Shown here: positions 5,357 through 63,647 of the stretch, one piece after another
Layout: the number at the start of each line of letters is the position of its first letter
Numbering within the stretch: position 1 is the first letter of the stretch
NCBI GenBank assembly: GCA_964527995.1
Contig: CAZGRP010000004.1
Span: forward strand, 20,230 to 84,229
Direction of reading: 5' to 3'
DNA from: an uncultured Cytophagia bacterium
GTDB taxonomy: Bacteria > Zhuqueibacterota > Zhuqueibacteria > Oceanimicrobiales > CAZGRP01
Length of the DNA: 64,000 nucleotides
Made by a program: the position numbers and the translations under genes
Notes under the pieces: model-generated
Seen by the model: only the letters and a program-made list of their open reading frames with translations
Told to the model about the DNA's origin: nothing
Database searches by the model: none

Positions 5357-5372
5357 TGGCACGCGGGTTGCA
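5357..5372 (+). promoter_or_regulatory. Sigma-54 (RpoN) -24/-12 promoter: TGGCACG-cggg-TTGCA
   Basis: Exact match to YTGGCACGrNNNTTGCW. GG at 5358-5359 and GC at 5370-5371 (12-nt spacing). It lies ~70 nt upstream of the first hsp20 start. Confidence 0.55.
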
Positions 5373-5446
5373 AAATGCAACTACGAAGGATCATGTTCAA
5401 CAGCATGGACGTGATCGACCTACGAGAGGTAAGGAGGTGAGTGGCA

Positions 5447-48726: not shown

Positions 48727-48901
48727 CATAGCGTTCCCACCCGGGTGGAAAGCGGGGGATGCACCCAAAGAAGCCGGAATCCGGCGGTTTCTGTAGCAGC
48801 CAGTGGGGCGCTGGTAGACGCACTTCCAGGAGGTCCGAACTGCAGCCCTGCTGTGGGCGTAAGTGGACTGAGTGGCATCCTCAGAATCAAGGAATGGCAA
48901 A

Positions 48902-50686
48902 ATGCCGGCAAAAGAGGTGAAGGGAGCAACCAAGAGGAGAGCGAAGGCGGACCCAGACAAGGCCGAACTTGCCCGCTTGCGTCGAGAAAACCAGTTGTTG
49001 GCCAAGCGGGCGCGAGCGACCAGGCGTATGGCCGACATGATGTCGGCGACTATCCGGCAGCTCGAGGCCATCAACGACCTGAACAAGTATCTCGGCGCCA
49101 TTTGGGACCTGGACAAGATTTTCGCCGAAACCATCCGCCTGTTGCGCCAGCAGATTCCTGTGGACGCAGCCTGGTTCTTCCTTTGGGACAAGACGGAGGA
49201 GACACTTCGACTCCGCGCCCAATACGGCGGCGGCAACGGTCTCACGGCGGAACTGGACCCCACCGTTCAGAGTGTGGCCGGCATCATCGTTGGGCAAAGT
49301 AAGGTCGAAGCCGCGCGTGAAATCTCACTGGTCAATCAGTCGCTGGCCGAACGCCTGTCTCGCTCTCTCATGGCGCTGGCCCTTCGCTACAAGCAAACGG
49401 CAGTGGGGGCGCTGGTCCTGCTGAGCCGGGAAGGAGCCATCTTTTCCCGTGCAGATCGGAGATTCAGTGAGAAGGTGGCCAACCAGGTGACTCTGGCGAT
49501 CCAGCGTGGCTTGTTGATCACCAAGTTCATCGATAAGAACGAGCGGCTGGCAGCGGCAAACGAAGAGCTGAATCGCGCCAAGGAACGCCTCAGCGAATGG
49601 AACCGCAATCTCGAGCAGGCCGTCGAAGAGCGGACTCACGAGCTGCGCACCTGGCACGATTTCTTGCAATCGGTCATCGACGGCTTGAGTGACGCCATTC
49701 TGATCGTCAACCGTGACCACCAGGTTCTGTTTGCCAACAGGGCCGCCAAACGCCTGGCAGAGATCGCGGCCGATTCTCTGGGCCGGTGCTACAACCGCGA
49801 CGCCGATGACCCCTGCCATTGCACGGATTGCCCCACAGCTCGCACTTTCTCGACCGGTGAGATTGGTCATACCTCCTACAGCGCTGTCGGTGGCGACGGG
49901 ATGCAGCGCTACTACGAGATGTGGACGTATCCGATCCGAGGCAAGAGCGGTGTGGTCGACCGTGTTATCGAAATCGTGCGCGATGTGTCGGAGCAGAAGT
50001 GGCTTGAGGCCCAGCTTGTGCAGGCGGAAAAGATGGCCTCCCTGGGCGAAGTGGCCAGCGGCATCGCTCATGAGATTCGCAACCCTCTCACCGGAATCAA
50101 ACTGGGCTTGAACGTCCTCAAGAATGAGCTGGACGGTGATTCAACCAAGCTGCAAGTGATGGAGCGCATCGCCCGCGACATCGACATGCTCGATCGCGTT
50201 GTGACCCAGATGCTCGAGTTTACGCGCCAGCGCGAAGTTCGCAAGGAGAGCTGCCAGCTTCTCGACGTGCTGGATAAGGCCACCTTCTACGTCAGCAAAC
50301 AAGCCCGTGACCACGGCATCGTGATTCACCGGGAGTTCAGCCCGACGCCGCCGATTCAGGTGGACCCGATTCTTATCCAGCAAGTTTTCTTGAATCTCCT
50401 GCTGAACGCAGTTCAGGCTATGCCATCGGGCGGCGACCTCTACCTTTCGGTCCGGACTCGGCATGCGCCGGACGGGATTGAAGTCGTCATCCGGGACACC
50501 GGCCCGGGGATTCCGGCGGCCAACAGGGCTCGCATCTTTCAACCGTTCTTTTCCACCAAACCGGGGGGAACCGGTCTGGGTGTACCGATTTCGGAACGCA
50601 TCGTCCGCGACCACGGGGGGCAGTTGCGCATCGATAGTGAGCCTGGCCGGGGTACTTCGGTCATCATCTTTCTACCCGAACAATGA
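48902..50686 (+). CDS. Cytoplasmic sensor histidine kinase (GAF-PAS-HisKA-HATPase_c), NtrB-like
   Basis: H-box EVASGIAHEIRNPL. N, G1, G2 boxes (LLLNAVQAM, RDTGPGIP, GTGLGVPI). No TM segments. The ORF begins at GTG 48872. Confidence 0.8.
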   Translation: MPAKEVKGATKRRAKADPDKAELARLRRENQLLAKRARATRRMADMMSATIRQLEAINDLNKYLGAIWDLDKIFAETIRLLRQQIPVDAAWFFLWDKTEETLRLRAQYGGGNGLTAELDPTVQSVAGIIVGQSKVEAAREISLVNQSLAERLSRSLMALALRYKQTAVGALVLLSREGAIFSRADRRFSEKVANQVTLAIQRGLLITKFIDKNERLAAANEELNRAKERLSEWNRNLEQAVEERTHELRTWHDFLQSVIDGLSDAILIVNRDHQVLFANRAAKRLAEIAADSLGRCYNRDADDPCHCTDCPTARTFSTGEIGHTSYSAVGGDGMQRYYEMWTYPIRGKSGVVDRVIEIVRDVSEQKWLEAQLVQAEKMASLGEVASGIAHEIRNPLTGIKLGLNVLKNELDGDSTKLQVMERIARDIDMLDRVVTQMLEFTRQREVRKESCQLLDVLDKATFYVSKQARDHGIVIHREFSPTPPIQVDPILIQQVFLNLLLNAVQAMPSGGDLYLSVRTRHAPDGIEVVIRDTGPGIPAANRARIFQPFFSTKPGGTGLGVPISERIVRDHGGQLRIDSEPGRGTSVIIFLPEQ

Positions 50687-52107
50687 GCGCATCGAGTCAC
50701 AAGCAGATCCTGATCGTCGACGACGAAGACAACATCCGCGAGTTCCTTTCGGTCTCCTTCGTGCGCGAGGGCTTCATCGTCCATACCGCCGAGTCGGGTG
50801 CCGTGGCGGAGGAGCTGTTTCAGGCATACGTCCCGGACATCGTGATCCTTGATGTTCGTCTGCCGAACCAGCACGGGCTGGATGTGTTGCGACGCATGCT
50901 CGAATTCAATCGCGACACCATGATCATCATGATCACGGCGTACGGCGACATCAAAACGGCTGTGGAGGCGATGAAGGCAGGGGCTGCGGACTACATCAGC
51001 AAGCCGTTCGACTTTGAGGAGATCCAGCTGGCCGTGGAAAGGGCGCTCCATGTTCAGGCCCTCAAGAACAAGCTCGCCGTTCTGGAGTCGCAGTCTGCCT
51101 CCTACGCCGACATGATCGGTGTCAGCGATCGCATGCGCCAGGTTTTTGCCACCATCGAGCGTGTGGCCGAAACGCCTGACTCCACGGTGCTCATCATGGG
51201 CGAGAGTGGCACTGGAAAGGAACTGGTAGCCCGGGCGATCCACAAGAGAAGCAGGCGGCACGAGAATCCTTTTGTGGCTGTCAACTGTTCCAGCTTGAAG
51301 GAACAGTTGCTGGAGAGCGAGCTGTTCGGTCATGAACGCGGCGCTTTCACCGATGCCCGGGAGCGAAAGAGGGGTCTCTTTGAGGTCGCTGACGGCGGCA
51401 CGATCTTCCTGGACGAAATCGGCGACATGGACGTCCGTTTGCAGTCCCAGCTTCTGCGCGTGCTGGAGGAGAGGGTTTTCCGGCGGGTCGGTGGCACCCG
51501 CGACATTCCCGTGGACGTACGGGTGATCGCCGCAACCAACAAGGATCTCCGGCAGGAGGTGGACGCCGGCCGGTTTCGCGACGATCTTTTCTATCGCCTC
51601 AGCGTGGTGCCTGTGGCGATTCCACCCTTGCGCGAGCGCAAAGAGGACGTACCTCCTCTGGTACGGTACTTCATCGAGGAGTTCAATCGCAAGTTGAGCC
51701 GGTCGATCCGCGGCATCACACCGGACGCGCTGAATGCGCTGATCATCTACGAATGGCCTGGAAACGTGCGCGAACTTCGAAATGTTATCGAAAGGATCGC
51801 CATTCTTGAGAATCCCGAGTTGATCCGCCTGGAGCACCTTCCGGTGGAGATCGCTCGCCGCGATGAGAGTGGATCCGGAGCGGCCGATGCCCTGGTGCAA
51901 CTGCCCTACCATGAAGCCAAGGCCCAGATGCTGGAAACGTTCGAGCGCCGTTATCTGCTCGGGTTGTTGCATCGTTATGGCGGCAACGTCTCCAAATGCG
52001 CCGAAGTAGCCGGTATCGATCGCAGTAGCTTTCATCGGCTACTGAAAAAGCACAGGATCGACTCAACGGCGTTTCGTTCCAGCACGACCGAACGGACTCT
52101 TCAGTGA
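50683..52107 (+). CDS. Sigma-54-dependent response regulator (REC-AAA+-HTH, NtrC family)
   Basis: REC domain with [20 protein letters not shown] Walker A. GAFTDA GAFTGA-like sigma-54 contact motif. C-terminal Fis-type HTH. Confidence 0.85.
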
Positions 52108-52114
52108 GGCCACA

Positions 52115-52134
52115 CTGTGGCGCTGGCGCCACAG
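52115..52134 (+). terminator. Short perfect hairpin after sigma-54 regulator gene (no U-tract)
   Basis: ctgtggcgc-tg-gcgccacag. Confidence 0.3.
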
Positions 52135-52207
52135 ACCGTAACTCGTGAGGAAACAAGGTGGAGTGTTTCTGGTGTTGTAGGCACGCCACAGTCGTCTGAA
52201 TATTTCG

Positions 52208-52236
52208 TTGACAATGGCCTTTTCCTCACTTTTATT
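52208..52236 (+). promoter_or_regulatory. Sigma-70-type promoter TTGACA-N17-TTTATT upstream of ferredoxin-sigma operon
   Basis: -35 at 52208-52213 and -10 at 52231-52236. Confidence 0.45.
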
Positions 52237-52391
52237 TCGCTGTTTTCGCCCCATTCTAGCCCATCACAGGCGGCCCTACGCAAGGAGCGTGGTACGGTGA
52301 TTGCCTTCCTTCCAGTGATCAATCATGGAGAGTGCTGGTCCGCGATTCTCCGGTAGAAGACGAGCATCTTTACAAGGGAGGTGAACGTATC

Positions 52392-52670
52392 ATGACCTAC
52401 ATCATTGCCGAGCCATGCGTGGGCGTTCGCGATCGGGCCTGCGTGGACGTGTGTCCTGTGGACTGTATCTATGAGGTCGAGGACACGCAACTCGAACCGG
52501 ATGACGAAGCCTACAAGGAAATGCTGTACATCCATCCGGAGGAGTGCATCGACTGTGGCGCCTGCGAGCCCGAGTGCCCGGTTGAAGCCATCTTCCCCGA
52601 GGACGAGGTCCCGGAGAAGTGGGAAGCCTACATCGACTACAACTACAAAGCCTTTGGGTTGAGCCGTTGA
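52392..52670 (+). CDS. Ferredoxin (two-cluster, 7Fe/8Fe-type)
   Basis: MTYIIAEPC...[10 protein letters not shown]...[21 protein letters not shown]. Confidence 0.8.
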
Positions 52671-52714
52671 CGTTGGTGATGTTACGGACGACAATCCGGG
52701 CGAGGTGAGGTTTT

Positions 52715-53575
52715 GTGGCAAGAGGTCAGCGGGGAAGCCGCGAGTATATCGACGAAGGATTCCGCCGCTACATGCGGGAGATCCAGGATTTTCCGGTTCT
52801 CACTCGGGCCGAGGAACAGCTTCTGATCCGCAAGGCCAAAGAGGGCGATCGGAAGGCGGCGGAACGGCTGATTGTCAGCAATTTGCGCTTCGTGGTCACG
52901 ATTGCCAATGAGTACAAGGATCGCGGAGTGCCGATGCTGGACTTGATCAGCCAGGGCAACCTCGGCCTGATAAAGGCGCTGGAGACGTTCGATCCGTCCA
53001 GAGGGCTGAAGTTCATCACGTATGCCGTCTGGTGGATCCGGCAGGCGATGCTGCAAGCCATCGCCGATCACTCCAGGGTGGTGCGAATACCCCAGAACCG
53101 ACTTGCCACCATGCGTCGGATTGAAATGGCCCGCCGAGAGCTTCAAAAGGTACACCAGCGCGACCCTGTGACCGAGGAAATCGGCCAGTCGCTTGGAATG
53201 GGTTCCGACGAAGTCCTCGATACCCTTCGGCTCATCCACACTGAAGTCTCCCTCGAGCAGACGCTCCAGGGCGAAAGCGATAGCCAGCTGAAGGAGCTGA
53301 TCGCCAATCCAACGTCACCTCGTCCGGATGATCGCGTCAACGCTGAATCTTTGGGACAGGATTTGCAGGACGCTTTGAGTCTGCTCAGCGACCGCGAGGC
53401 GACAATCTTGCGGCTTTACTATGGTTTGGAAAACGAGCAGGCACACTCTCTCGGCACGATCGGAGAGCGTTTTAATCTGTCACGGGAGAGAATACGGCAG
53501 ATACGCGATCAGGCCTTGAGGAAGCTCCGCCTTTCGGCGGACATCATCGCCCGCCTCCGAGAATACCTCGGCTGA
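52715..53575 (+). CDS. RNA polymerase sigma-70-family factor, short RpoD-like paralog (~50% identical to 44828-45685)
   Basis: [56 protein letters not shown] start 44 nt after the ferredoxin stop. Confidence 0.85.
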   Translation: MARGQRGSREYIDEGFRRYMREIQDFPVLTRAEEQLLIRKAKEGDRKAAERLIVSNLRFVVTIANEYKDRGVPMLDLISQGNLGLIKALETFDPSRGLKFITYAVWWIRQAMLQAIADHSRVVRIPQNRLATMRRIEMARRELQKVHQRDPVTEEIGQSLGMGSDEVLDTLRLIHTEVSLEQTLQGESDSQLKELIANPTSPRPDDRVNAESLGQDLQDALSLLSDREATILRLYYGLENEQAHSLGTIGERFNLSRERIRQIRDQALRKLRLSADIIARLREYLG

Positions 53576-53587
53576 CCCTCGCGGATT

Positions 53588-53875
53588 TCACTTCTTCTTG
53601 AACAGTTCTTCCAGCTTGCGCCGAGCCTGCTGCTGGCGGTCGGAAGGAGCAGGGTGCGGCGTTTTGGCATGCGGACGGAAGTAGTCACAGAAGTTGCCGG
53701 TCTCTTTGTCGCTGACCCAGGCGGCTTGCGGCTCACGGCACTGGTTGTGGGCGTTCGGGTCGTAGAAGTCACAATTGAGGCACACGTGCAGGTAGGCAGT
53801 GCAATGGGGGCAGGTCTCCTGCCGGCCAGGCTTTCCCGTGAGCGGGACTTCAGTCCCGCAGCGGTAGCAGATCAT
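53588..53875 (-). CDS. Cys-rich zinc-ribbon protein, hypothetical
   Basis: CYRCG...CPHC...CLNC...C...C, eight Cys. Basic C-terminus. Convergent with the sigma gene. Confidence 0.55.
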   Translation of the reverse strand: MICYRCGTEVPLTGKPGRQETCPHCTAYLHVCLNCDFYDPNAHNQCREPQAAWVSDKETGNFCDYFRPHAKTPHPAPSDRQQQARRKLEELFKKK

Positions 53876-53923
53876 CCCGCCTTCCGTGCGCAAGGTTGCG
53901 CGTCTTATGGATGGGGTAGAGTT

Positions 53924-53964
53924 GGCGCGCGCCAGGGCCTATAAAAGCCTGAAGGGCGCGCCCT
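53924..53964. promoter_or_regulatory. Dyad element: two GGCGCGCC palindromes flanking a TATAAAA-containing spacer
   Basis: ggcgcgcgcc (53924-53933) and gggcgcgccc (53954-53963). It lies in the region just upstream of the zinc-ribbon gene and upstream of the anti-sigma gene. Confidence 0.3.
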
Positions 53965-54149
53965 AAATCGGACACGCCCCTCGAAGCGCGCACGGGATAC
54001 AACACTCTAAGTAGCTGGCAAACAAAATCCGCAAGCCCTTGCGCCTTGAGCTGGTCTGCGTCGGTGGATCTTCCGCGTCTCGACGCTGACTTTGCGGCGC
54101 AAAAGCGTGTGCTAATATAGCTAACAAAAATCATCCTGTCAAGTGGAAA

Positions 54150-54869
54150 ATGGAGTTTTTGGCTCTTACCGACAAACCTTCTGCCAATCGTCCCGTAAAC
54201 AAAAAAATGTCTGAAGTCTTTCCTCACCAGAGCAAATCTCTTTCTGCCTCTGGAAAGCGACCGACACGCGCTTGGGAGGACAGCGGCCTTGAGGGGGACG
54301 GTTCTGATGTTGCACTTCCGAGTTTGTGGACCAAGAACAGCCAGGCGCTCAGCGTGAAATGGAGTTTGTGCTTTCTACCAGGGGACTTTAGCAATTTTTC
54401 CGAGACGGTGCAGATCAGCTTTCCCAGCAGGCTGGACTACGTGCCCGTAGTCGTCTCCTACCTGACCGAAGTCGCCGCCCGTCTCAAGCTGATCGATGCG
54501 GATGAATCGAACTTCCCGGTCGTGGTAGATGAGGCCCTGACCAACGCCGTAGTCCACGGCAACCGTAGCGACCACGGCAAGCTCGTGCACGTCAGGGCAA
54601 CGTTTACGCCGCACAGGCTGGAGGTCGCGGTGCGCGACGAAGGGCAAGGGTTCGACTATGATCTCTTGCCGAACCCGCTCGAAAAGGACAATCTGCACCG
54701 TACCCACGGCAGAGGTATCTTCTTGATTCGCTCCCTGGTGGATGAACTTCGCTTCAATGAAGCTGGGAATGAGATCATCCTCGTGCAGACTGTCAGACAA
54801 GATGCAGCGAGGAAGCGCCAGTCGAGCCACCCCCATTGTTCTCCCGCCCGAGACTCAGAAACCCCTTGA
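54150..54869 (+). CDS. RsbW/SpoIIAB-type anti-sigma factor serine kinase (HATPase_c_2)
   Basis: VDEALTNAVVHGN (N-box), VRDEGQGFD (G1), GRGIFLIRSLVDEL (G2). Confidence 0.65.
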   Translation: MEFLALTDKPSANRPVNKKMSEVFPHQSKSLSASGKRPTRAWEDSGLEGDGSDVALPSLWTKNSQALSVKWSLCFLPGDFSNFSETVQISFPSRLDYVPVVVSYLTEVAARLKLIDADESNFPVVVDEALTNAVVHGNRSDHGKLVHVRATFTPHRLEVAVRDEGQGFDYDLLPNPLEKDNLHRTHGRGIFLIRSLVDELRFNEAGNEIILVQTVRQDAARKRQSSHPHCSPARDSETP

Positions 54870-55138: not shown

Positions 55139-56707
55139 ATGTCCTTCCCCGTTGCAGCCCGGTCCGACCTGCACGAAGCAGGAGTGCCCTTTGTGCCGGA
55201 GGCGCAAACGTGGGGAGCGCGGATTCTGGCGCTCCTCCCCTCTTCCGACCACTACCTCGTCGATCTCCTGGCAGGCCAGCACTGGAGTGTCGAGGCAGTG
55301 GCCGAGGCTGCATCGCTACTTGAACACGCCCGTCGCCACCAGACCGACTTGATTGTCGTCGACCTGCCGAGCCGATGCGACTGGGCGTTCGATCTCTGCC
55401 AGCGTCTCAAAGAGGATCCGGGGCTGCGTTGGGTGCCGGTGCTGGTCCTGGCAGAGGGACCACGCCAGAGGTATCTCGAACTGCTGACAGTACTGCCGGT
55501 GGAGGATTGTCTGGGCAAGCCGTTCGAGCTGGACGAACTGCTGGCCCGGATGAGCCGTCTTCTGCTGCGGCAGAACCTGCATCGTGCCACCGCCTTACTG
55601 CATGATCTGATCGACTTCGCTCACGTCATGGCCATCATCCTTGATACCAAAGGTCATGTGCGCGCCATCTCTCCCGCTGCCGCCAAGTTCCTCGGGCATA
55701 GCCAGGAGGAGGCTGTTCAGCTCAGGTCTGGCGATATTTTCTCGCCAGATTGCGCTGGCGACTTCGGGCAGCTCGTGCGCACGGCTCGAGCAGGTCGGCA
55801 GGTCAACGGACGGAGGTCACGTCTGATTGACTGTGCTGGCAGAGAGTTGGCCGTGGAGATCGACGCTGCGCCTCTTCCGACGTCCGACGGAGCGATGCAT
55901 GTGGCTCTGATTTTTCGAGACATCTCCTCGCGAGTTCGCGCCGAGAAGGAGGCGGAGGAATATACCCGGCTGCTCCAACAGGCCGTCGAAGAGCGCACTC
56001 GCCGGCTGGTGGAAACGCAGAATCAACTGATCATGTCCGAGAAAATGGCCGTTGTCGGTCAGCTCGCTGCCGGCGTTGCCCACGAAATCCGAAACCCGCT
56101 CAACATTATCGGGATGTCCGCTTATTACCTCGGCAAAGTGCTCGGAGTCCAGGCCGGTAAAGTCGGGGAGCATCTTGAGATCATCCAGGAGGAGATCACC
56201 AGGGCCCAGAAAATCATCGAGAACCTCCTGGATTTCTCGCGGCAGTCCAGCGTAAAGCGTGAAGCTGTGGACCTGAATGGATTGATCCACCTTACCCTGT
56301 CGCTGTTGCAGAAAGAGATTCAGAGAAGCGATATCGAGGTTGTGGCAGATCTGGGGGACGTCCCTCCATGCTACGCCAACAGTGACGATCTGAAACAGGT
56401 GCTCCTCAACCTGATTCTGAATGCTCGGGACGCGATGCCCAATGGCGGCGTTCTCAGCTTGAAGACACGGGCGAACGGCTCCGACTGGGTCGTCTGTGAG
56501 TTACGCGATACAGGCGTCGGCATCTCTACCAGCGACATTCCGAAGATCTTCAATCCGTTTTTCACCACAAAGCTGGAACGCAAGGGCACCGGACTTGGTC
56601 TGGCAATCGTGCGTTCAGCGATCGAACGCAACAGTGGCCAGGTGGAAGTGAAGTCTCATGTGGGAAAGGGTACGTTGTTCATCATCAAACTACCAGCGGC
56701 GAAGTAG
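55139..56707 (+). CDS. Cytoplasmic histidine kinase with N-terminal receiver-like domain (REC-PAS-HisKA-HATPase_c)
   Basis: REC-like DLIVVDL...VPVLVLAE...GKPFELDELLARM. H-box LAAGVAHEIRNPL. N/G boxes LILNARDAM, RDTGVGIS, GTGLGLAI. Confidence 0.8.
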   Translation: MSFPVAARSDLHEAGVPFVPEAQTWGARILALLPSSDHYLVDLLAGQHWSVEAVAEAASLLEHARRHQTDLIVVDLPSRCDWAFDLCQRLKEDPGLRWVPVLVLAEGPRQRYLELLTVLPVEDCLGKPFELDELLARMSRLLLRQNLHRATALLHDLIDFAHVMAIILDTKGHVRAISPAAAKFLGHSQEEAVQLRSGDIFSPDCAGDFGQLVRTARAGRQVNGRRSRLIDCAGRELAVEIDAAPLPTSDGAMHVALIFRDISSRVRAEKEAEEYTRLLQQAVEERTRRLVETQNQLIMSEKMAVVGQLAAGVAHEIRNPLNIIGMSAYYLGKVLGVQAGKVGEHLEIIQEEITRAQKIIENLLDFSRQSSVKREAVDLNGLIHLTLSLLQKEIQRSDIEVVADLGDVPPCYANSDDLKQVLLNLILNARDAMPNGGVLSLKTRANGSDWVVCELRDTGVGISTSDIPKIFNPFFTTKLERKGTGLGLAIVRSAIERNSGQVEVKSHVGKGTLFIIKLPAAK

Positions 56708-56710
56708 ACG

Positions 56711-58081
56711 ATGACGGCTGTTGCGCCACGGATCTTGCTCGTCGATGACGAGGCCAATTTCCGCAAGACGGTGGTCGATCTCCTCAAGCTCGAGGGATAC
56801 GAGGTCTTTACGGCACCGAGCGGAGCCGACGCCCTGGCGATTCTCGAAGATGTCACGGTAGACATTGTCATCACCGATGTGCGCATGCCTCGAATGTCAG
56901 GCGTGGAGCTGTTGCAGCGTCTCCGCCACGCGCATCCCGACGTGGATGTAATCGTGCTCACCGGCTACGGATCGATTCATGACGCGGTGAGAACCATCAA
57001 GATGGGCGCCTACAACTACGTCATGAAACCGGTGAATTTTGAGGAGCTGGCGCGAGACGTTCGTGACATCCTTCGGATGCGGAATCGGCTGCCCGAAGGA
57101 TCAATCGCCTCGGATTCCGCTGCAGACAGCATTGTTGGCAGCAGCCCGCCGATCCGGCACGTCCGGCATCTGATCGACCGGTTCGCGGCATCGGAACTCC
57201 CTGTGCTCATCGAAGGAGAAAGCGGAACCGGCAAGGAGCTGGTTGCCAATGCCATCCATGCGCGCAGTCCCCGAGCCGAGAATCCGTTCGTACGAATCAA
57301 CTGTGCCGCGCTTCCGGAACCACTGACCGAAAGCGAGCTTTTTGGCTACGAACGCGGCGCCTTCACGGGGGCGACCCAGCAGAAGAAGGGAAAAATCGAG
57401 TTGGCGAGCGGCGGAACGCTCTTCCTGGATGAGATCGCCGAGATGCCGCTGGGTACCCAGGCGAAGCTTCTGCGCGCCATCGAACAGCAGGAAATCGAGC
57501 GACTCGGTGGTACGGAGGTCATCAAAGTGGATGTGCGCCTGATCGCCGCAACGAACCAGAACCTGCGCGAGCTGGTGCAACGCGGGGAGTTTCGCAAGGA
57601 CCTGTACTACCGCATCAACGCCGTGTCCATCAAGACGCCGCCGCTTCGCTCGATGCCGGAAGACATTCCGCGTCTGGCCAATTATTTTCTCGACAAACAT
57701 TGCGCTGAGGTCGGAAAGCCGGTTCCCCGGCTCGGACGCGAGGTGATGCAGATTCTTCTCTCTCATCCCTGGCCTGGCAATGTGCGTGAGCTTGCAAACG
57801 TCATCCGCAGGGCGGCTATCCTGTGCGACGGCGGCGAACTGAATCCCGGACATCTTCCCGCAGAACTCGCGGAGCCGCCGGCCGAGGTTGCCGAAGACGA
57901 TGCCAGAACGTTGTCCCTGGATGAGCTTGAGCGACGTCATATCGCTCGCGTGCTGAGATTGACGGCGGGTAACAAGAATGCAGCGGCCCGATTGCTCAAT
58001 ATCCACCGCGATACGCTCTACCGCAAGATACGCAAGTACAACCTGTTATCTGATACCGGAGGAACACGCCAACCGGAGTGA
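56711..58081 (+). CDS. Sigma-54-dependent response regulator (NtrC family)
   Basis: REC (DVRMP), [22 protein letters not shown]-terminal HTH. Confidence 0.85.
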   Translation: MTAVAPRILLVDDEANFRKTVVDLLKLEGYEVFTAPSGADALAILEDVTVDIVITDVRMPRMSGVELLQRLRHAHPDVDVIVLTGYGSIHDAVRTIKMGAYNYVMKPVNFEELARDVRDILRMRNRLPEGSIASDSAADSIVGSSPPIRHVRHLIDRFAASELPVLIEGESGTGKELVANAIHARSPRAENPFVRINCAALPEPLTESELFGYERGAFTGATQQKKGKIELASGGTLFLDEIAEMPLGTQAKLLRAIEQQEIERLGGTEVIKVDVRLIAATNQNLRELVQRGEFRKDLYYRINAVSIKTPPLRSMPEDIPRLANYFLDKHCAEVGKPVPRLGREVMQILLSHPWPGNVRELANVIRRAAILCDGGELNPGHLPAELAEPPAEVAEDDARTLSLDELERRHIARVLRLTAGNKNAAARLLNIHRDTLYRKIRKYNLLSDTGGTRQPE

Positions 58082-58454
58082 TATACGATGGGAAAGAGGG
58101 TACAAGCTCAAACGACGTGGCTCCACAAGCGGCCGCCGCCGTAGGCCTGTGATGCCGAGGTTTAGGATGGACCCCCCATTTTCAGCCTGCTCGCCCGCCC
58201 GGCGAGGGCCCCAGGCGTCGGAAAGCACGGCATCTGCCGCATTTTACGACATCCTGGCGGTATCGTCCTAGTCTTTTGGAAAGCAATGGCTTAGATGGTA
58301 CTGCCTTCATTTGGAAGTCGTAATTTGTCGGCCTGAGGTTCGCTTCATTGGATCGTTACCCTCCATTTCAGGCGCTGTTTGGATGGACCTAAAAGACTGA
58401 AACCACAGCGCTTACCGGACCTTCCTCGACATAGGATTTGTCAGCGATTTGACC

Positions 58455-58471
58455 TTGGTACGTCTGTTGCA
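58455..58471 (+). promoter_or_regulatory. Sigma-54 -24/-12 promoter: TTGGTACG-tctg-TTGCA
   Basis: GG 58457-58458, GC 58469-58470 (12-nt spacing). One mismatch to TGGCACG. ~70 nt upstream of the receiver gene ATG 58539. Confidence 0.5.
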
Positions 58472-58538
58472 GAGGTGCACTGGCCTTTTGGGTGCTGACT
58501 TCCTCCGGGCGCAAGCCCGACCGACAGGGCGTACGGGT

Positions 58539-59087
58539 ATGAATCTGCTTTTGATCGATCCCGAGCGGCGTACGCTCGAGGTCTATCGTGACATCTTTGA
58601 AATATGGGGGTACGACGTGACGGCCGTCCGCACCGGCTCGGAAGCGGCAAAGGCGTTTTCCGAGGCAGCCTTTGATCTTGTCATCCTGGATGACAACCTG
58701 CCGGACACGCCGGGGGTCGAACTGATTCGGGCGATGAAGACGCAAGCGCCGGCGGTTCCGCTGATTGTGATGACGGCCAACTCGACGGTGCGTGGAGCGG
58801 TGAGCGCCATCCGTGCGGGCGCCGACGACTATTTGGCCAAGAGCACCGATGTGGAGGGTGTTCGGCACTGCCTCCAAGAGACCCTCGGGCAGCGCCCCGA
58901 AAACTCGCAGTCAGCCAAACTGCAGGCAGAGATTCTGACGAACCTTCGCCGGGTTCGCGATCATTTGGATGAGGTGATCGGATTTATCGAGCAGGCAAGC
59001 CGCCGAAGGGCCGGGCAGAGCGACACGGGGGCCTCGAGGCCGGCCCAGACAAATCGCCACGCGGAGCGTGAAGATACTGCACCTTGA
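58539..59087 (+). CDS. Stand-alone response-regulator receiver protein with ~70-aa C-terminal tail
   Basis: LLLIDPE, LVILDDNLPD (acceptor Asp), VMTANST, YLAKS. The ORF begins at TTG 58449. Confidence 0.7.
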   Translation: MNLLLIDPERRTLEVYRDIFEIWGYDVTAVRTGSEAAKAFSEAAFDLVILDDNLPDTPGVELIRAMKTQAPAVPLIVMTANSTVRGAVSAIRAGADDYLAKSTDVEGVRHCLQETLGQRPENSQSAKLQAEILTNLRRVRDHLDEVIGFIEQASRRRAGQSDTGASRPAQTNRHAEREDTAP

Positions 59088-59166
59088 TGGCGGAAGCAAG
59101 GAGGTGTTTCTGCCACGGATGAGCTGACACGTTCTGACTCAGCGAGGAAGGTTGTCTCACGGCGAC

Positions 59167-60258
59167 ATGCGTCTGCAACCAGAAACCTGGGGAATCGCAA
59201 GCGGTGATGCGGGAAGTGGGAAGACGACCGTAGCTGCCTGCCTTGGGGCCATCCTGCAACAGCAGGGGCTGCCCGCCCTCATCCTTGATGCGGACCTTAG
59301 AGGCGAGAATTACCTGCTCTCTGCTTCGGTGAGCAGCGAACCGGACGCTCTTTCTGCCAGAGTTCTTTCGGAAGGCTATCTCTTGATCTTGCGCCGCTCG
59401 CTCGGCGACGACTTCGATCGTACCATACGCGGGCTTGAGTCTATCGTGCCGCGAAGGAAGCGATCGGCGCTTCAGCTCTTGCTTGATTTTGGAACAGGAT
59501 CATCGGAAAAATATGCGGAGTTTTTTCCGCTGCTGTCCAATCCGGTGGTTGTGGCGGATCGCACCGGAGAGTCGGTCGCGAAGGCATTGTCCTTTGCTTA
59601 TCGGGCTGTTCTCCGCTGTATCGGCCGCCGACTGCGTCGATATCCAGAAGTCACCCGTATGATTCGGCAGGCTTTGACGCGCGAAGCGGAAGGCTCTGTT
59701 ACTCGGTTGAGTGAGATCGCTTACCACCTGATTGGTGTGAATCGTTATGCGGCTGAGGTGGCTCGATCGATCATTCGTGCTTATCATCCCAAAGTCGTGC
59801 TGAATCGCTCCGAAGAGGTGCAGGAACAGAAGAAGCTGCGACGGCTGTTGGCGCAGGTCCGCCTTGAAACCGATCTGGATATCTCCTTCGGCGGCACTCT
59901 TGCCAACGAGCCTCGACTTGCGGAGGTCGCGGCGCAGGCGACGAAACTGTCGCTCGACGATCCCGAAAGCGAATACGCCATCTGGCTGGCAAGAGAGCTG
60001 GCCCGGAAGCTGCAAGGAGAGAGCCGAATCGATCCACAGGGGGCGCCGCCGACGAAGCCGACCACCCGGCGCAGAAGGTGGCTCGGAGGGCTACTAGGAT
60101 CGGTAGCGATGTTCTGGACGGTATCGCCCAAAGCCGTCAGCCTGCCACCAGGCCGCCGAGCGGGGTTGACCACCGCCGGGCAGACGATTCTCGGAAGCCG
60201 ACCTTTCGATGTTACGCTTTCCCGCTATGTCAGAAAGGGGAATCGCACGATCGTGTAA
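59167..60258 (+). CDS. P-loop ATPase of the MinD/BY-kinase (CpsD/Wzc-like) superfamily, no C-terminal Tyr cluster
   Basis: Walker A GDAGSGKTT. Walker A' ALILDADLRGENY (DxDxR, BY-kinase-like). Start ambiguous (TTG 59152 or ATG 59167). Confidence 0.55.
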   Translation: MRLQPETWGIASGDAGSGKTTVAACLGAILQQQGLPALILDADLRGENYLLSASVSSEPDALSARVLSEGYLLILRRSLGDDFDRTIRGLESIVPRRKRSALQLLLDFGTGSSEKYAEFFPLLSNPVVVADRTGESVAKALSFAYRAVLRCIGRRLRRYPEVTRMIRQALTREAEGSVTRLSEIAYHLIGVNRYAAEVARSIIRAYHPKVVLNRSEEVQEQKKLRRLLAQVRLETDLDISFGGTLANEPRLAEVAAQATKLSLDDPESEYAIWLARELARKLQGESRIDPQGAPPTKPTTRRRRWLGGLLGSVAMFWTVSPKAVSLPPGRRAGLTTAGQTILGSRPFDVTLSRYVRKGNRTIV

Positions 60259-60467
60259 TCGTGGTTGTGAGGCTGGAAGCTGTTCGTCGTAGCTGAGCCT
60301 TTATTATGGGCTCGGAGGGAGACCCATCAATGGGTTCTGGGCGCAAGGTAGGATGTAGTGCCGAACGAGCCCAAAACGGAGGAAGGATGCAACCGCCATG
60401 ACGGCTGCCCGGACCCTCGCCGATCTTCGGACGGTGAGGGCGGGCAGCCGGGGTTGCTGCAAAGAGG

Positions 60468-61607
60468 ATGGAACCATCAAAGCATCAGGAGGGAGGCGTG
60501 ACTGGGTTCGAGTTCTCCTGGATTCGTGACGAGAAGGGGTTCGAAGCTTTGCAAGACGAGTGGGAGGCGCTGCTGGCGCGAAGCGGTTTGAACAGTATGT
60601 GCCTGAGCTGGGAGTGGATGTGGACCTGGTGGAGGGTCTATGGCGGGCGGAGCCAGCTCGCCCTGCTGTCGATTCGGCGCCGCGGAGAGCTGGTTGGGCT
60701 CGCGCCATTGCTTCGTGCCCCGGAGCGACGTCCCGGGCGGGAAATCGGCTGGGCCTTTCGGTTTCTTGGAAACGGCGAGACCGGGTCCGACTACCTGGAT
60801 GTCATTTGCGACACCGCCTACCAGAGAGAGGTGCTCGCAACACTGGCCGAGGTGCTTGTCGAGGAGGCGGAGGGCTGGGATGTCGTCGAGCTTTCGGCGT
60901 TGCCGGCCCACTCGGTCACCAGGCGGTTCTTGAGCGATTTCTTGAGCAGGCGGAACTTTTTTGTCGGCCGGGCACGAAACCAGGTATGCCCTTATCTCGA
61001 CCTTCCATCGTCGTGGGACGTCTTCCTGCGCCGCATCGACAAGGGGCTACGCAGCGTGCTGCGCTACAGGACCAACCAGCTCCTCCACCGTCACCGCGTG
61101 CGTTTCGAGCGCTGCCGGCGGGAAAGTCAGTTCGACGCTAGCTTTGGCACCTTAGTTCGCCTGCACCAGCATCTCTGGGAGGGACGAGGAATCTCGGGGG
61201 CATTCGCCAGCGAAAGCTACTACCGTTTTCACCGCAAGTTCGCTCAGGAGGCCCTGCGCCGTGACTGGTTGCGCCTTTTTGTGCTGAGAATCGATGACGA
61301 GCCGGTGGGGGCGGTCTGCGGCTACCATTTCGGAGACGTGGGCTATTTCTTCCAGATGGGATACGATCACGGCTGGAGTGGCCTGCAGCTCGACATCATT
61401 CTGGTGGGCCGTGCAATCCGGGATGCTATCGATTCGGGACTGTCCCAGTTTCGCTTCATGCATTCCGATTCAGAATACACGTTGCGTTGGACCAAACATT
61501 CTCACATGAACACCCACTGGGAAGTGCGACCGGCGACGAGCCTTCAGCAGCCCGGGACGACGCCGACATTTGAGAGGGTGGCCAGAGCCTACAACCCTGC
61601 TCTATGA
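60468..61607 (+). CDS. GNAT-fold FemAB/CelD-like protein (Acetyltransf_6-type, exopolysaccharide-associated)
   Basis: YYRFHRKF, LFVLRIDDEPVGAVCGYHFGDVGYFFQMGYD pattern recalled from CelD/BioF2-like proteins. Alternative GTG start at 60501 with AGGAGGGAGG RBS. Confidence 0.55.
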   Translation: MEPSKHQEGGVTGFEFSWIRDEKGFEALQDEWEALLARSGLNSMCLSWEWMWTWWRVYGGRSQLALLSIRRRGELVGLAPLLRAPERRPGREIGWAFRFLGNGETGSDYLDVICDTAYQREVLATLAEVLVEEAEGWDVVELSALPAHSVTRRFLSDFLSRRNFFVGRARNQVCPYLDLPSSWDVFLRRIDKGLRSVLRYRTNQLLHRHRVRFERCRRESQFDASFGTLVRLHQHLWEGRGISGAFASESYYRFHRKFAQEALRRDWLRLFVLRIDDEPVGAVCGYHFGDVGYFFQMGYDHGWSGLQLDIILVGRAIRDAIDSGLSQFRFMHSDSEYTLRWTKHSHMNTHWEVRPATSLQQPGTTPTFERVARAYNPAL

Positions 61608-61634
61608 TCGGTGCTCCAGAGAGGAGAGACAACA

Positions 61635-61844
61635 ATGAAGAGGAGTGTGACGCTGGTTGTATTGCTCGTGCTGGCGGTCGTGGCCCTCATTTTGCAAATC
61701 GTGGCACGGCGGGGGGCCAAATCAGATCGCCAGGGAAGCGGTGACCTGAATCGCCTCATCAACGAGCAGCCGACGCAGGTCGTGGTCTTGCCTTCGATCC
61801 ATATCCCTGCACTCGGCGACGCCAGCGAAATTCATCGGATCTGA
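61635..61844 (+). CDS. Hypothetical small membrane-anchored protein
   Basis: GAGGAGAG RBS. N-terminal TM helix VTLVVLLVLAVVALIL. 69 aa. Confidence 0.3.
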   Translation: MKRSVTLVVLLVLAVVALILQIVARRGAKSDRQGSGDLNRLINEQPTQVVVLPSIHIPALGDASEIHRI

Positions 61845-61939: not shown

Positions 61940-62191
61940 ATGTCTTCTCGAATCTCTCGCGGCTCGCTCGAGCCTCGGGAGTGGTTGCATCCCACTCAAG
62001 AGAGCAAGCTGGGGGGATCAGCAGAAAGCGGAATCCTGCGCTCCACCGAGGTGCATGCCAGCGGCACTATGAACGTGCTCAATGCTGCCCGCCAGGCGGG
62101 CACCCGGTGCCTCGTGTTCGTCTCCTCTTTCTCAGTGTGCTCGGCTGCCAACCGGAAGTTGATTTCGAAACCGGACGACGCCGGACCCTAG
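61940..62191 (+). pseudogene. Remnant of NAD-dependent epimerase/dehydratase gene
   Basis: GTMNVLNAARQAGTRCLVFVSS matches the conserved NV.GT.N(L/V)LEAA....R.VF.SS block of the SDR epimerase family. Only ~80 codons are in frame; flanking frames are disrupted. Confidence 0.4.
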
Positions 62192-62274
62192 CCTGATCGC
62201 ACGACTACGCAAGACAACCCGCAAAAAAACGCCCAGTCCCGCAGGGGACCGGGCGTGTACGGAGGAAAGGCAAC

Positions 62275-63195
62275 TTAGCGTTCGTCGTTCTGCAGGGTGA
62301 TGCGCGTGTCCTTCTGCTGCATCAGCAGCCCCTTTACACGTTCCAGATTGGCTTGGGCTTTGGTGTTGTTCGGATCGAGCTCGACAGCCTTCGTGTAGGC
62401 GGCCTTGGCCTCCTCGACTTCGCCCAACCGTTCCAGCGTGATCCCGAGATTATTGAAGAAGAATGGCAGGTCGTCGCGCAGTGCAACGGCCCTCTGCAAG
62501 TGGGGAAGAGCCACCTCGAACCGCTCTTGCTCGATGTAGATGAGGCCGAGATTGTTGTGCGCGAAGGGATTCTCACTGTCGAGCGCGATGGCACGCTCGT
62601 AAGCCGACACCGCCTCATCAACCCGGGTTTGATTGTAGAGCACCCTGGCGAGAACGACCCAGGCATCTGGGCTGGAGCTGTCGAGCGCCGTAGCCCGGGT
62701 CGCGGCATCGAAGGCCTGTGACGTGTCGCCGAGATCGAGATCGACGCGGGCCAGGTTGAGCCATCCTTTGACGAAGTCCGGTGATATCTCCACCGCCCTC
62801 TGCAAAGAAATGCGCGCACTATCGATTTCGCCTGTGCGCCGTAATTCCAGGCCGCGAAGATACCACTGCCACGCCGTCTGCGGAGATTGTTGCGGTGCGG
62901 TCGGCATAGCCTCCTCGGCATGTTCAGCTTCGATCGTATCGGGTTCGACCTGAGTTTCGGCAACCGTCACCGGCTCAATCGTTCGGACTGTTTCGCTGAC
63001 CGGCGTGGCCGGCCGCCGAGGTGATTCGAGCGACTTCCGGGCGACCCGCTCGGGCGATTCCTTGGAATCGCCACAGCCCTGGGTGCTCTGAAGGCCGATC
63101 GCCACGGCCGTCAGAAACACCACAGCCACGAATCGGCGGGCCACGATGGCGCGCGATTCGCGCTGGGCATGACTTCGAGTGGTTGACTTGCGCAT
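62275..63195 (-). CDS. TPR-repeat lipoprotein
   Basis: ATG 63195 with AAGGAGGTG RBS. Signal peptide plus QGCG lipobox. About six TPR units (AW.NLG..Y......AI..Y..A..L.P...A..NLG). Confidence 0.7.
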   Translation of the reverse strand: MRKSTTRSHAQRESRAIVARRFVAVVFLTAVAIGLQSTQGCGDSKESPERVARKSLESPRRPATPVSETVRTIEPVTVAETQVEPDTIEAEHAEEAMPTAPQQSPQTAWQWYLRGLELRRTGEIDSARISLQRAVEISPDFVKGWLNLARVDLDLGDTSQAFDAATRATALDSSSPDAWVVLARVLYNQTRVDEAVSAYERAIALDSENPFAHNNLGLIYIEQERFEVALPHLQRAVALRDDLPFFFNNLGITLERLGEVEEAKAAYTKAVELDPNNTKAQANLERVKGLLMQQKDTRITLQNDER

Positions 63196-63647
63196 GACAC
63201 ACCTCCTTGGGTTAAGGTAATTTTGGATGACCCGCGGCTTCCGGGACTTCCATAAACCAAGAGGCGTGCCACGATTTCGGAGGGGCATCGGATAGATAGT
63301 AAGTTGTGTATTATTAGAGTGCTACGGCTATCTAGTGGTACCCATGGATGGCGGAGCCGAGGGGCCGGTGTGTCCGCGGGAACACGATTTCCGAAAACCT
63401 CGCAGCGATGGTCGTGTGGCCGAAGACACGGGCCTGTGTTCCCAGGGACACATTGGCAGACGGTAGGGTCCTCCGCACCGGAGGCGCCATACATTGCTGC
63501 GGAATCAATGCCAGCCGATTCAGGTTCATGCTCAGGCTTCTCCTCCGGCAGCGCTGGTTCTCATCCAGAGAACCACCTTGACTTTGCTGTCCCCTGGCTG
63601 TATATTGGGGCGCTTGTAGGGAACGGGCCAACAGGAGGGAACCGATC

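Follow-up and report, generated by a model that had tools for sequence, protein, structure and literature searches.

The window (the whole stretch of DNA analyzed here, 64,000 nucleotides) contains an operon with a sigma-54 promoter and four intact genes, encoding a stand-alone receiver, a P-loop ATPase, a GNAT-fold acyltransferase and a small membrane protein. Our best explanation, offered tentatively, is that this lineage-restricted operon, under a two-component system and sigma-54, may serve inducible modification (N-acylation) of envelope or surface glycan precursors, with the receiver, the MinD-like ATPase and the small membrane protein acting as a switch or tether. Each part can be assigned to a known family, but this combination of them is rare and has not been described, and we infer its function.

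Promoter and adjoining regulators

The promoter, TGGTACGTCTGTTGCA (58456-58471, + strand), has the -24 GG and -12 GC elements at the correct spacing and is close to the consensus TGGCACG-N4-TTGCW. Across the 64-kb window there are two matches to the pattern TGGYACG-N4-TTGCW, where 0.02 would be expected. In two diverged relatives the element reads TGGTACGGCTGTTGCA (L002) and TGGTATGGCTGTTGCA (L003), and its position relative to the receiver gene is unchanged. These observations confirm the sequence-only reading, which had placed a near-consensus sigma-54 promoter 3' of an NtrC-type activator gene. That gene (56711-58081, + strand) encodes a sigma-54 activator (bEBP) with REC, AAA+ Sigma54_activat (241 bits in Pfam) and HTH_8 domains and a GAFTGA motif, as proposed for an operon lying beside its likely activator, and its synteny is kept in L002 and L005. 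The preceding gene (55139-56707, + strand) encodes a cytoplasmic histidine kinase, presumed to be the sensor of the system, in which Pfam recognizes a weak N-terminal REC-like domain, PAS, HisKA and HATPase_c. It is kept upstream of the activator in L002, with a dN/dS of 0.08 relative to that genome. The proposal that the kinase and activator form a PrsK/PrsR-like pair is not supported, as the activator scores 391.7 bits with the PrsR model TIGR02915, below the cut-off of 502.6, and scores higher with the AtoC and NtrC models. The window contains no rpoN gene.

A 34-bp palindrome, GTCGGAAAGCACGGCATCTGCCGCATTTTACGAC (58217-58250, unstranded), precedes the promoter by about 205-240 bp; it hardly varies among the three aligned sequences and occurs once in the window. 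It is a candidate upstream activator site (UAS), which the adjacent, presumably cognate activator is predicted to bind. A conserved box that precedes the promoter by about 130 bp, GGAAGTCGTAATTTGTCG (58314-58331, unstranded), may possibly be a second UAS, to which a repeated GTCGTAA half-site, by itself no rarer than chance, points weakly.

Operon content and conservation

The first gene (58539-59087, + strand) encodes an NtrC-type receiver of 182 residues (PF00072, 79 bits, cut-off 30.2) that is 28% identical to the REC domain and linker of the adjacent bEBP and has a helical, conserved C-terminal tail. Its phospho-acceptor Asp is kept (ILDDNLPD), and ILD51-DNLP, MT-ANS and AK-S are legible in the sequence; the L003 orthologue has Glu in the acceptor position. 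The receiver family has only 4 members among 5.8 billion proteins, with a dN/dS of 0.07-0.17. The ATPase and acyltransferase genes follow, and Pfam confirms the gene content originally read from the DNA: receiver (79 bits), P-loop ATPase (33.9 bits) and PF13480 GNAT (93 bits). The same gene order, governed by one promoter, is seen without change in three lineages. We note that the module family is tiny, with four or five sequences, all metagenomic, and that the co-occurrence evidence comes from 3-4 related genomes; synteny is therefore not independent support.

Between the ATPase and GNAT genes lies an intercistronic leader RNA (60300-60497, + strand), conserved and structured according to the alignment and RNAalifold. 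Within it are GGCTCGGAGGGAG, which is invariant, boxes rich in GGA, and a long GC-rich hairpin that lacks a U-tract. The RNAalifold structure has 53 pairs, of which 12 show compensatory change, and was derived from the same 3 sequences. In these 3 sequences, 84% of cells are paired, compared with 33-48% in slid controls, and the folding z is -3.3. An Rfam search with the leader (~200 nt) gave no match.

The last intact gene (61635-61844, + strand), which was called in each of three assemblies and is kept in L002 and L003, encodes a 69-residue single-pass membrane protein (MKRSVTLVVLLVLAVVALILQIVARRGAK...) that matches nothing in Pfam or NCBIfam. Basic residues are more numerous after the helix than before it, from which its topology may be predicted. 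Downstream is a deletion remnant (62042-62193, + strand) of a TviC/WbpP-like NAD-dependent UDP-sugar 4-epimerase, whose gene is intact 3' of the module in L002 and L003. When the intact 311-residue proteins of these relatives were used in tblastn, residues 92-123 aligned to 62042-62137 and residues 287-306 to 62134-62193 in a different frame, and residues 124-286 are gone. The sequence-only reading was thus right to call an NAD-epimerase remnant here, and the remnant is identical in two other assemblies. The intact orthologue scores 293 bits with the TviC model, below the cut-off of 760. A convergent gene (62275-63288, - strand), syntenic in L003 and L001, encodes a TPR protein by Pfam TPR families; it scores 75 bits with the PrsT model (cut-off 312), and its membership in the module is uncertain.

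The pseudogene could mark the loss of the entire operon, leaving a functionless, decaying remnant; the reduction of the epimerase to two out-of-frame fragments, the aberrant Walker A of the ATPase and the extreme rarity of the family fit such a view. However, the remaining reading frames are intact, and the receiver, ATPase, GNAT and 69-residue protein are under purifying selection (dN/dS 0.07-0.21, between lineages only 55-78% identical). Conservation extends to the promoter, the palindrome and the leader, and the Walker A substitution is common to all four family members and therefore an old, maintained state. We consider general decay highly improbable.

A divergent MinD/FlhG-class ATPase

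The ATPase gene (59167-60258, + strand) encodes a divergent P-loop protein of 363 residues, which profile comparison and the modelled fold place in the MinD/FlhG/FleN class. It matches PF01656 (CbiA) with 33.9 bits, and hhalign aligns it with MinD/FlhG-like relatives over 284 columns (99.9% probability, E 2e-33). The structure model, built on an alignment rich in FlhG-like sequences, has a pLDDT of 72 overall and >90 at residues ~120-250, with a low-confidence C-terminal tail, and the protein has a helical insertion of ~70 residues. The P-loop Lys, the Walker A' Asp pair and the Walker B Asp are retained. In the Walker A motif, GDAGSGKT, Asp replaces the signature Lys of KGGxGK[ST]; this position is Asp or Glu in 4/4 family members and Lys in 53/60 aligned sequences. 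The C-terminal tail RRRRWLGGLLGSVAMFW is basic-hydrophobic and resembles a MinD membrane-targeting sequence. Its motif RRRRWLGGLLGSV, R-R-x-x-[FW]-L-G-G-L-[LF]-G-S, is largely kept across the four members and is followed by ~45 unconserved residues. The hydrophobic moment of the tail is 0.47, a moderate amphipathicity in a region of low model confidence.

The first reading described an ATPase with ILDADLRGE and without a C-terminal tyrosine cluster, and both features are borne out. The Walker A' is LDADLR (ALILDADLRGE; family consensus DADLRR), in agreement with the BY-kinase pattern hhhhDxDxR, and there is only 1 Tyr among the last 60 residues, where the compared BY-kinases end in YAYxYRYY. 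The suggested affinity to BY-kinases is not. BY-kinases taken from the exopolysaccharide (EPS) loci of the GNAT relatives align over 45 columns, from the P-loop to Walker A' (76% probability), versus the 284 columns above; the Walker B motif, LLLDFGTG, is of MinD/FlhG type and not DTPP. The ATPase scores 18.3 bits with TIGR01007 (cut-off 108.05), and TIGR03018 gives no match at E <= 0.01.

An ordinary MinD or ParA positioning ATPase for division or for chromosome or cargo partition, neighboring unrelated genes by chance, would share the fold, and the best NCBIfam match is archaeal-type MinD. Yet the score with that model (minD_arch) is 29.4 bits against a cut-off of 201.75, with minD_bact 16.7 against 212.9 and with ParA_partition 21 against 180. 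Assignment to the MinD class thus stands, and identity as a bona fide MinD or ParA was rejected, as every score lies below its curated cut-off and the signature lysine is absent. Moreover, MinC/MinE, ParB, FlhF or other flagellar proteins, or a FleQ-type activator were not found among the window ORFs, and the arrangement of the gene with those of the receiver and GNAT behind a single promoter does not vary. The chance-neighbor explanation is the least credible of those weighed here.

The main rival to our explanation, which we regard as unlikely, is feedback of the FleN type. The MinD/FlhG-like protein would serve as an anti-activator by binding the AAA+ domain of the neighboring activator, the receiver would be a phosphate sink or heterodimerizing decoy, the two would jointly damp their own promoter, and the GNAT and the small protein would be the sole outputs. 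Binding of FleN to FleQ requires an ATP-bound dimer formed through the signature lysine K19, and K19A abolishes binding (PMC8528422); the equivalent residue is the Asp/Glu described above. With the family's own profile, the FleN match is confined to the P-loop and reaches no better than E 0.2, so that the similarity is transitive, and the structure model was itself built on the FlhG-rich alignment. Furthermore, the adjacent activator is of the phosphorylatable NtrC type and not the FleQ type, and sampled distant relatives of the ATPase are in non-bEBP contexts such as a Che cluster.

An acyltransferase with relatives in exopolysaccharide loci

The GNAT gene (60498-61607, + strand, GTG start) encodes 369 residues and matches PF13480 (Acetyltransf_6; CelD/BcsL-type) with 93 bits (cut-off 22) over residues 194-337, in agreement with the CelD-type family that the first reading expected; PF13480 is present in 96/96 homologues, and the dN/dS is about 0.1. 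Identity as a PEP-CTERM FemAB protein is not supported, since TIGR03019 gives no match at E <= 0.1 (18 bits versus 260 for a relative, P0008). A search of solved structures with the GNAT profile found none.

All four sampled relatives (31-38% identity) lie within Wza/Wzz-BY-kinase/Wzy/flippase EPS loci, so the evolutionary link of the GNAT to EPS loci that had been suggested is supported. A polysaccharide deacetylase adjoins the gene in all four loci and a DegT aminotransferase is found in 2, which suggests amino-sugar acylation. We note that PF13480 also covers the protein acyltransferase BspF, whose model the GNAT relatives match weakly; this counts against the glycan-acylation reading.

A different account of these links, and the one raised by the sequence-only reading, is a degenerate PEP-CTERM/EPS locus, with a BY-kinase minus its tyrosine cluster, a PEP-CTERM FemAB protein and PrsK/PrsR as the regulators. 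In its favor, the ATPase combines Walker A' DADLR(R/G) with a non-deviant Walker A as BY-kinases do, Etk aligns to its P-loop (E 0.002), the EPS loci of the GNAT relatives encode BY-kinases, with a stand-alone receiver in one of them (L093), and the activator reaches 392 bits on the PrsR model. As the scan had noted, no glycosyltransferase, Wzx/Wzy or exosortase was found among the large ORFs of the window; nor did gene calls for the 7.6 kb past the window end, covered by L004, include one. However, the compact module of L002 and L003, with its epimerase intact, likewise lacks glycosyltransferases and other EPS genes; only the epimerase has decayed here. Together with the hhalign coverage, the DFGTG Walker B and the PEP-CTERM and BY-kinase model results above, this largely refutes a degenerate EPS locus, to which we give very little credence.

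Proposed mechanism

In the tentative N-acylation reading, the PAS histidine kinase would phosphorylate the adjoining activator, which would bind the palindrome and open the -24/-12 promoter. The transcript would first yield two regulators, the receiver with its helical tail and the MinD/FlhG-class nucleotide-binding protein, and then, after the structured leader, which may have a regulatory role, the effectors: the CelD/BcsL/HfsK-type acyltransferase and the 69-residue membrane protein. A TviC/WbpP-like epimerase was probably an ancestral third effector. The receiver, the MinD-like protein and the small membrane protein may contact one another as a phosphorylation- and nucleotide-dependent tether or switch that sets the time and place of acyltransferase action at the membrane. 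We propose this by analogy with BcsE(REC*)-BcsQ-BcsF, EpsW~P-EpsZ and membrane-dependent HfsK.

The promoter statistics and conservation, the syntenic GAFTGA activator and kinase, and the palindrome support this explanation, as do the purifying selection, the PF13480 match, the EPS-locus relatives, the intact epimerases in L002 and L003, and the MinD/FlhG class of the ATPase with its conserved C-terminal motif. Several points count against it. No glycan-assembly genes were found within 54 kb upstream or 7.6 kb past the window end, and loss of the epimerase here while the rest is kept indicates that the sugar link is not obligatory. MinD/FleN dimer chemistry needs the signature lysine (PMC8528422), which the ATPase is missing, and its tail is of moderate amphipathicity and is modelled with low confidence.

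Comparison with known systems

BY-kinases (Wzc/Etk/CapB; TIGR01007, TIGR03018) share with the ATPase a non-deviant Walker A (G-x-x-G-x-G-K-T) and a DADLRR-like Walker A'. The likeness ends there: the Walker B is not DTPP, scores are far below cut-offs, and the protein has neither a tyrosine cluster nor a Wzz/activator domain. CpaE/TadZ, thought to be a localization hub, likewise combines a REC-type module with a MinD-class protein of atypical Walker A; its N-terminal receiver-like domain is fused to the ATPase and it belongs to a tad/cpa pilus locus, neither of which is the case here. FlhG/FleN are MinD-like ATPases, FleN being the anti-activator of the sigma-54 activator FleQ. The present protein differs from them in the Asp/Glu at the signature lysine, the ~70-residue helical insertion and the lack of an N-terminal FlhF-activating segment; no flagellar genes are near it, direct similarity does not extend beyond the P-loop (E 0.2), and scores are below curated cut-offs.

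HfsK (Caulobacter) and UppA/UppQ (Agrobacterium) are FemX- or BcsL-like GNATs that modify adhesive polysaccharides and, by description, resemble the present protein as cytoplasmic GNAT folds. HfsK is a FemX-like tandem GNAT whose homologues cluster with EPS genes and whose activity requires membrane association (PMC5362036), and UppA is a BcsL-like GNAT of a Wzy-type adhesin locus (bioRxiv 10.1101/2021.04.22.440995). These enzymes are tied to Wzx/Wzy loci, often beside a polysaccharide deacetylase, whereas no polysaccharide locus is nearby here. Membrane association of HfsK is regulated, with c-di-GMP acting through its own C-terminal tail and not through a MinD-like partner.

In Myxococcus, the phosphorylated single-domain receiver EpsW directly activates an EPS enzyme (PMC12802240). 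The EpsW-EpsZ pair, a case of post-translational activation, resembles the present module in that a receiver is encoded with polysaccharide-type enzymes, plausibly for protein-protein contact. The input of EpsW is a chemosensory system and its target a phosphoglycosyl transferase, which this module lacks; the receiver here, unlike EpsW, has an NtrC-type linker-like tail.

In enterobacterial cellulose secretion (BcsE-BcsR-BcsQ-BcsF), BcsE, which contains REC*, and BcsF, a small membrane protein, recruit the MinD-like BcsQ to the membrane (PMC7439463). That system likewise joins a SIMIBI ATPase of MinD-like type (BcsQ) to a protein with a receiver-type domain (BcsE REC*) and a very small tether that spans the membrane once (BcsF), in a polysaccharide context, and the family of the GNAT described here is itself named CelD/BcsL in the sources.

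Results

The operon region begins with a histidine kinase gene (55139-56707, +; weak REC-like domain, PAS, HisKA, and HATPase_c) and an NtrC-type activator gene (56711-58081, +; with a GAFTGA motif and the domains REC, Sigma54_activat (241 bits), and HTH_8). An intergenic region of 457 nt leads to genes for a stand-alone receiver (58539-59087, 182 aa), a P-loop ATPase (59167-60258, 363 aa), a PF13480 GNAT with a GTG start (60498-61607, 369 aa), and a small protein with one hydrophobic helix (61635-61844, 69 aa), all on the plus strand. The 431-nt stretch 3' of the small protein gene contains an epimerase remnant and is followed by a convergent TPR gene (62275-63288). Two diverged relatives carry the same module in metagenomic loci. 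In one of them, L002, the 311-aa epimerase is intact and accompanies the kinase, activator, receiver, ATPase, GNAT, and small protein; the other, L003, contains the same genes from the receiver on, together with the convergent TPR gene. Identity to the window's ATPase is 64% for the L002 protein and 57% for the L003 protein. The closest model for the epimerase of the relatives is TviC (293 bits, under the cut-off of 760). In the window, residues 92-123 and 287-306 alone are left of this protein, back to back and in different frames, and identical decay is seen in two further assemblies of the same population. Because the relatives hold the compact module with the epimerase intact, the compact module is ancestral in the sampled lineages, and the decay here concerns only the epimerase. 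The dN/dS values of the receiver, ATPase, GNAT, and small protein are 0.07-0.21 (Nei-Gojobori), which are rough values because dS is close to saturation. Considering the broken epimerase on one side and these values on the other, we find it highly improbable that the module is a functionless remnant.

A sigma-54 promoter (TGGTACGTCTGTTGCA) is located at 58456-58471. The pattern TGGYACG-N4-TTGCW has two matches in the 64 kb, compared with 0.02 expected, and the element is kept at the same position in both diverged relatives (TGGTACGGCTGTTGCA in L002 and TGGTATGGCTGTTGCA in L003). The three-way alignment further contains a nearly invariant 34-bp palindrome, GTCGnAAA-N18-TTTACGAC, at 58217-58250, which is present as a single copy in the window, a second box containing GTCGTAA at 58314-58331, and another conserved block directly 5' of the promoter. 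This is the pattern that would be expected of an enhancer-dependent promoter, with the palindrome as a candidate and the GTCGTAA box as a possible binding site of the activator. The palindrome was also considered as the intrinsic terminator of the activator gene and rejected, as the loop of its stem is only 2 nt, a proper U-tract is missing, and no terminator is listed there. The other sigma-54 match in the window is perfect (TGGCACGCGGGTTGCA at 5357-5372, +) and lies 5' of two tandem Hsp20-type small heat-shock protein genes (5441-5893 and 5990-6433). No copy of the 58217 palindrome is found at this promoter, so a different activator probably works there.

The ATPase and GNAT genes are 239 nt apart in the window; in L002 the spacing is 210 nt and in L003 it is 289 nt. 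This gap contains an intercistronic leader of ~200 nt (60300-60497 in the window, 5224-5420 in L002, and 3196-3394 in L003). The leader is conserved block-wise and folds into several helices. It includes the sequence GGCTCGGAGGGAG, which is invariant, as well as several boxes rich in GGA and a long GC hairpin that lacks a U-tract. RNAalifold predicted 53 pairs from the three sequences, 12 of them with compensatory change, and 84% of the cells are paired, compared with 33-48% and 1-5 compensatory pairs when the partners are slid. The window sequence folds 3.3 sd better than its shuffles. Rfam gave 0 matches at E <= 1, and a search for the leader pattern elsewhere found no copy, with 0 matches in metagenome contigs. 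The leader remains a candidate RNA element because there are three sequences and the structure was derived from the same three. Its role may lie in processing or stability, or it may be bound by a CsrA-type protein or resemble a riboswitch.

The ATPase falls into CbiA in Pfam (33.9 bits), and in NCBIfam it has only sub-threshold P-loop matches, the best being archaeal MinD (29 bits, cut-off 202). Its family comprises 4 proteins among 5.8 billion searched. When 1.84 billion representatives were searched exhaustively with the profile, a single cluster fell under E 1e-30, with the next match at 2e-22, and the family patterns had no match in GTDB genomes or JGI metagenome contigs. The next relatives, found at E 1e-22 to 1e-10, are MinD/FlhG-like proteins with canonical GKGGxGK[ST], and their alignments cover profile positions ~7-290. 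Profile-profile comparison of the family with 38 such relatives covered 284 columns (99.9% probability, E 2e-33), including a ~70-residue helical insertion between strands 5 and 6. Conserved in the family are the P-loop Lys, both Walker A' Asp residues (one member has Asn for the first), the switch-I Asn, and the Walker B Asp, within DFG(T/S/A)G of the MinD/FlhG type rather than DTPP. The signature lysine position is occupied by Asp or Glu in all four members, compared with Lys in 53 of 60 aligned sequences. A largely conserved motif at the C-terminus, R-R-x-x-[FW]-L-G-G-L-[LF]-G-S, resembles a MinD membrane-targeting sequence, with only moderate support for an amphipathic helix.

From the sequence alone, the ATPase had been read as BY-kinase-like and the locus as reminiscent of PEP-CTERM loci. 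Profile-profile comparison with the BY-kinases of exopolysaccharide (EPS) loci aligned only 45 columns, from the P-loop to Walker A' (76% probability). The BY-kinase models gave 18 bits against 108 for TIGR01007 and no reported match for TIGR03018, the C-terminus has no tyrosine cluster, and the TIGR03019 model does not match the GNAT. Membership tests rejected the BY-kinase and PEP-CTERM readings, which we consider very improbable, as well as a bona fide MinD/ParA protein; an ordinary MinD is similarly remote, given the acidic residue at the signature lysine position of an otherwise MinD/FlhG-like protein. These ATPases form a new subfamily of very small size, made up of MinD/FlhG-like proteins that lack the signature lysine.

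An AlphaFold model of the ATPase built from 60 sequences has a pLDDT of 72 overall and >90 in the core (an earlier model from 4 sequences, with a pLDDT of 51, was unusable). In Foldseek searches with this model, FlhG and FleN chains are within the top five, followed by MinD and Soj, and no BY-kinase is among the matches listed in either search. The family's own profile matches solved structures only weakly and only over the P-loop, so the FleN/FlhG assignment is transitive, and the model inherits this bias. The fold ranking and the sigma-54 setting make a FleN-like anti-activator loop acting on the neighboring activator attractive, but FleN requires its signature lysine for dimerisation and FleQ binding (PMC8528422), and this position is acidic here. 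We regard such a loop as the main rival explanation, if an unlikely one.

The nearest outgroup of the family is P0101 (L010 2099-3400, from the same sample, SRR9849954; E 2e-22), whose Walker A is likewise degenerate (AGPERSGKT) and whose C-terminus is extended by a Cys-rich segment. P0101 is followed by a second CbiA-type ATPase and, two genes further on, by a stand-alone receiver, an arrangement suggesting that pairing of a degenerate MinD-like protein with a receiver may be recurrent. A more distant MinD/FlhG-like relative that shares the helical insertion, P0105, is the last gene of a complete chemosensory cluster (L012 1-7984; MCP, CheY, STAS, CheA-CheW, CheR, CheD, and CheB). Among other relatives, some have a RomY domain at the N-terminus and some have TPR repeats. 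From these contexts, the wider subfamily looks tied to signalling and not to flagella.

The stand-alone receiver is of the NtrC type. Its best partial matches are the receivers of LuxO, ZraR, and AtoC, and its identity to the REC-plus-linker of the adjacent activator is 28%. It has the acceptor Asp, Thr, and Lys and a strongly conserved helical tail, and the family has four members only in the database. The orthologue in L003 (1383-1862), the most diverged relative, has Glu at the phospho-acceptor position (ILEDNLPD instead of ILDDNLPD), which would make it phosphorylation-independent or phosphomimetic.

The GNAT matches PF13480 over residues 194-337 (93 bits). It has three close orthologues, beyond which identity is <=38%. 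All four relatives sampled beyond the close orthologues are in one recurrent type of EPS locus, bearing out, for the GNAT, the sequence-only reading of an echo of such loci. Pooled over the four loci, some of which lack some genes, the gene list includes Wza, a Wzz-BY-kinase with a YAYxYRYY tail, an initiating transferase, Wzy, a flippase, asparagine synthase, GT4 glycosyltransferases, and a heparinase II/III-like protein. The loci have one or two PF13480 paralogues (two in L008, L093, and L094, a locus type to which L006 also belongs), with a polysaccharide deacetylase directly 3' of them. In L093 and L094, the paralogues flank a DegT aminotransferase, and in L093 only, a stand-alone receiver is located between Wza and the BY-kinase. 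These locations make a role of the GNAT in amino-sugar N-acylation plausible. The GNAT profile had no meaningful match among PDB sequences, and its tandem-GNAT, FemX-like architecture is assumed from the literature, where we found PF13480 (Acetyltransf_6) in incidental mentions only. Published relatives in spirit are HfsK, a FemX-like tandem GNAT whose homologues cluster with EPS genes and whose activity requires membrane association (PMC5362036), and UppA, which is BcsL-like (bioRxiv 10.1101/2021.04.22.440995).

No glycosyltransferase, flippase, polymerase, or exosortase was found among the window ORFs scanned or among the genes called in the 7.6 kb past the window end. Housekeeping genes make up the remainder of the window: those of the futalosine pathway, IleRS, MetH, DivIVA, a lone polysaccharide deacetylase, and a large surface protein (17224-19827) in which three lamin-tail domains are combined with a FlgD-Ig/CHU_C sorting domain for type IX secretion (T9SS) at the C-terminus. 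The IleRS is <=60% identical to that of any GTDB species representative, with nearest neighbors in Ignavibacteriae, Zixibacteria, KSB1, and similar groups, which loosely indicates an uncultured FCB-group lineage; the surface protein fits this placement. Directly upstream of the operon region is a regulatory island (48872-54869) encoding a second kinase-activator pair, consisting of a GAF-PAS histidine kinase (48872-50686) and an NtrC-type activator (50683-52107; no GAFTGA match by simple pattern search). The island also encodes a sigma factor of the sigma-70 family (52715-53575) and an anti-sigma kinase resembling RsbW (54150-54869).

Discussion

The finding is real and coherent: the protein families of the locus are known, and their arrangement is undescribed. 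MinD/ParA-class proteins are increasingly seen organising envelope machines (BcsQ, TadZ, and FlhG), and there are emerging cases of single-domain receivers that regulate polysaccharide enzymes directly, at the post-translational level (EpsW). The locus would join a receiver and a MinD-like protein with a CelD/HfsK-type acyltransferase, co-transcribed under sigma-54 control. Since the signature lysine, thought to be essential to the class, is gone, the ATPase would naturally lend itself to testing which share of the MinD mechanism a switch or tether needs. With its five genes, the compact system could also help to assign a substrate to PF13480, a large family that is biochemically uncharacterised. 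The family found at this locus is limited to four or five metagenomic sequences, closely related to one another, of an uncultured lineage in the FCB group; given this narrow distribution and a function that is inferred, the general importance is modest.

The best-supported reading, which we favor tentatively, is that the operon is an inducible envelope-glycan modification module. The GNAT, ancestrally together with the epimerase, would be the enzymatic part, and the receiver and MinD-like protein encoded ahead of the enzymes, perhaps with the small membrane protein, would be the regulatory or tethering part. A more novel and rather doubtful reading, less probable than the FleN-like loop, is that an undescribed switch is formed by the receiver, the MinD/FlhG-like protein that lacks the signature lysine, and the 69-aa membrane protein, in which receiver phosphorylation, not ATP-sandwich dimerisation, would recruit the Fem/HfsK-type acyltransferase to the membrane. 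In this reading, feedback of the ATPase on the sigma-54 activator is a further possibility, and the conserved ~200-nt leader would be a new cis-regulatory RNA setting the regulator-to-enzyme ratio.

Three published systems each work partly like the proposed glycan modification module: BcsE(REC*)-BcsQ-BcsF, in which a MinD-like protein is recruited to the membrane (PMC7439463), EpsW~P, which activates an EPS enzyme by contact (PMC12802240), and HfsK, which is regulated through membrane association.
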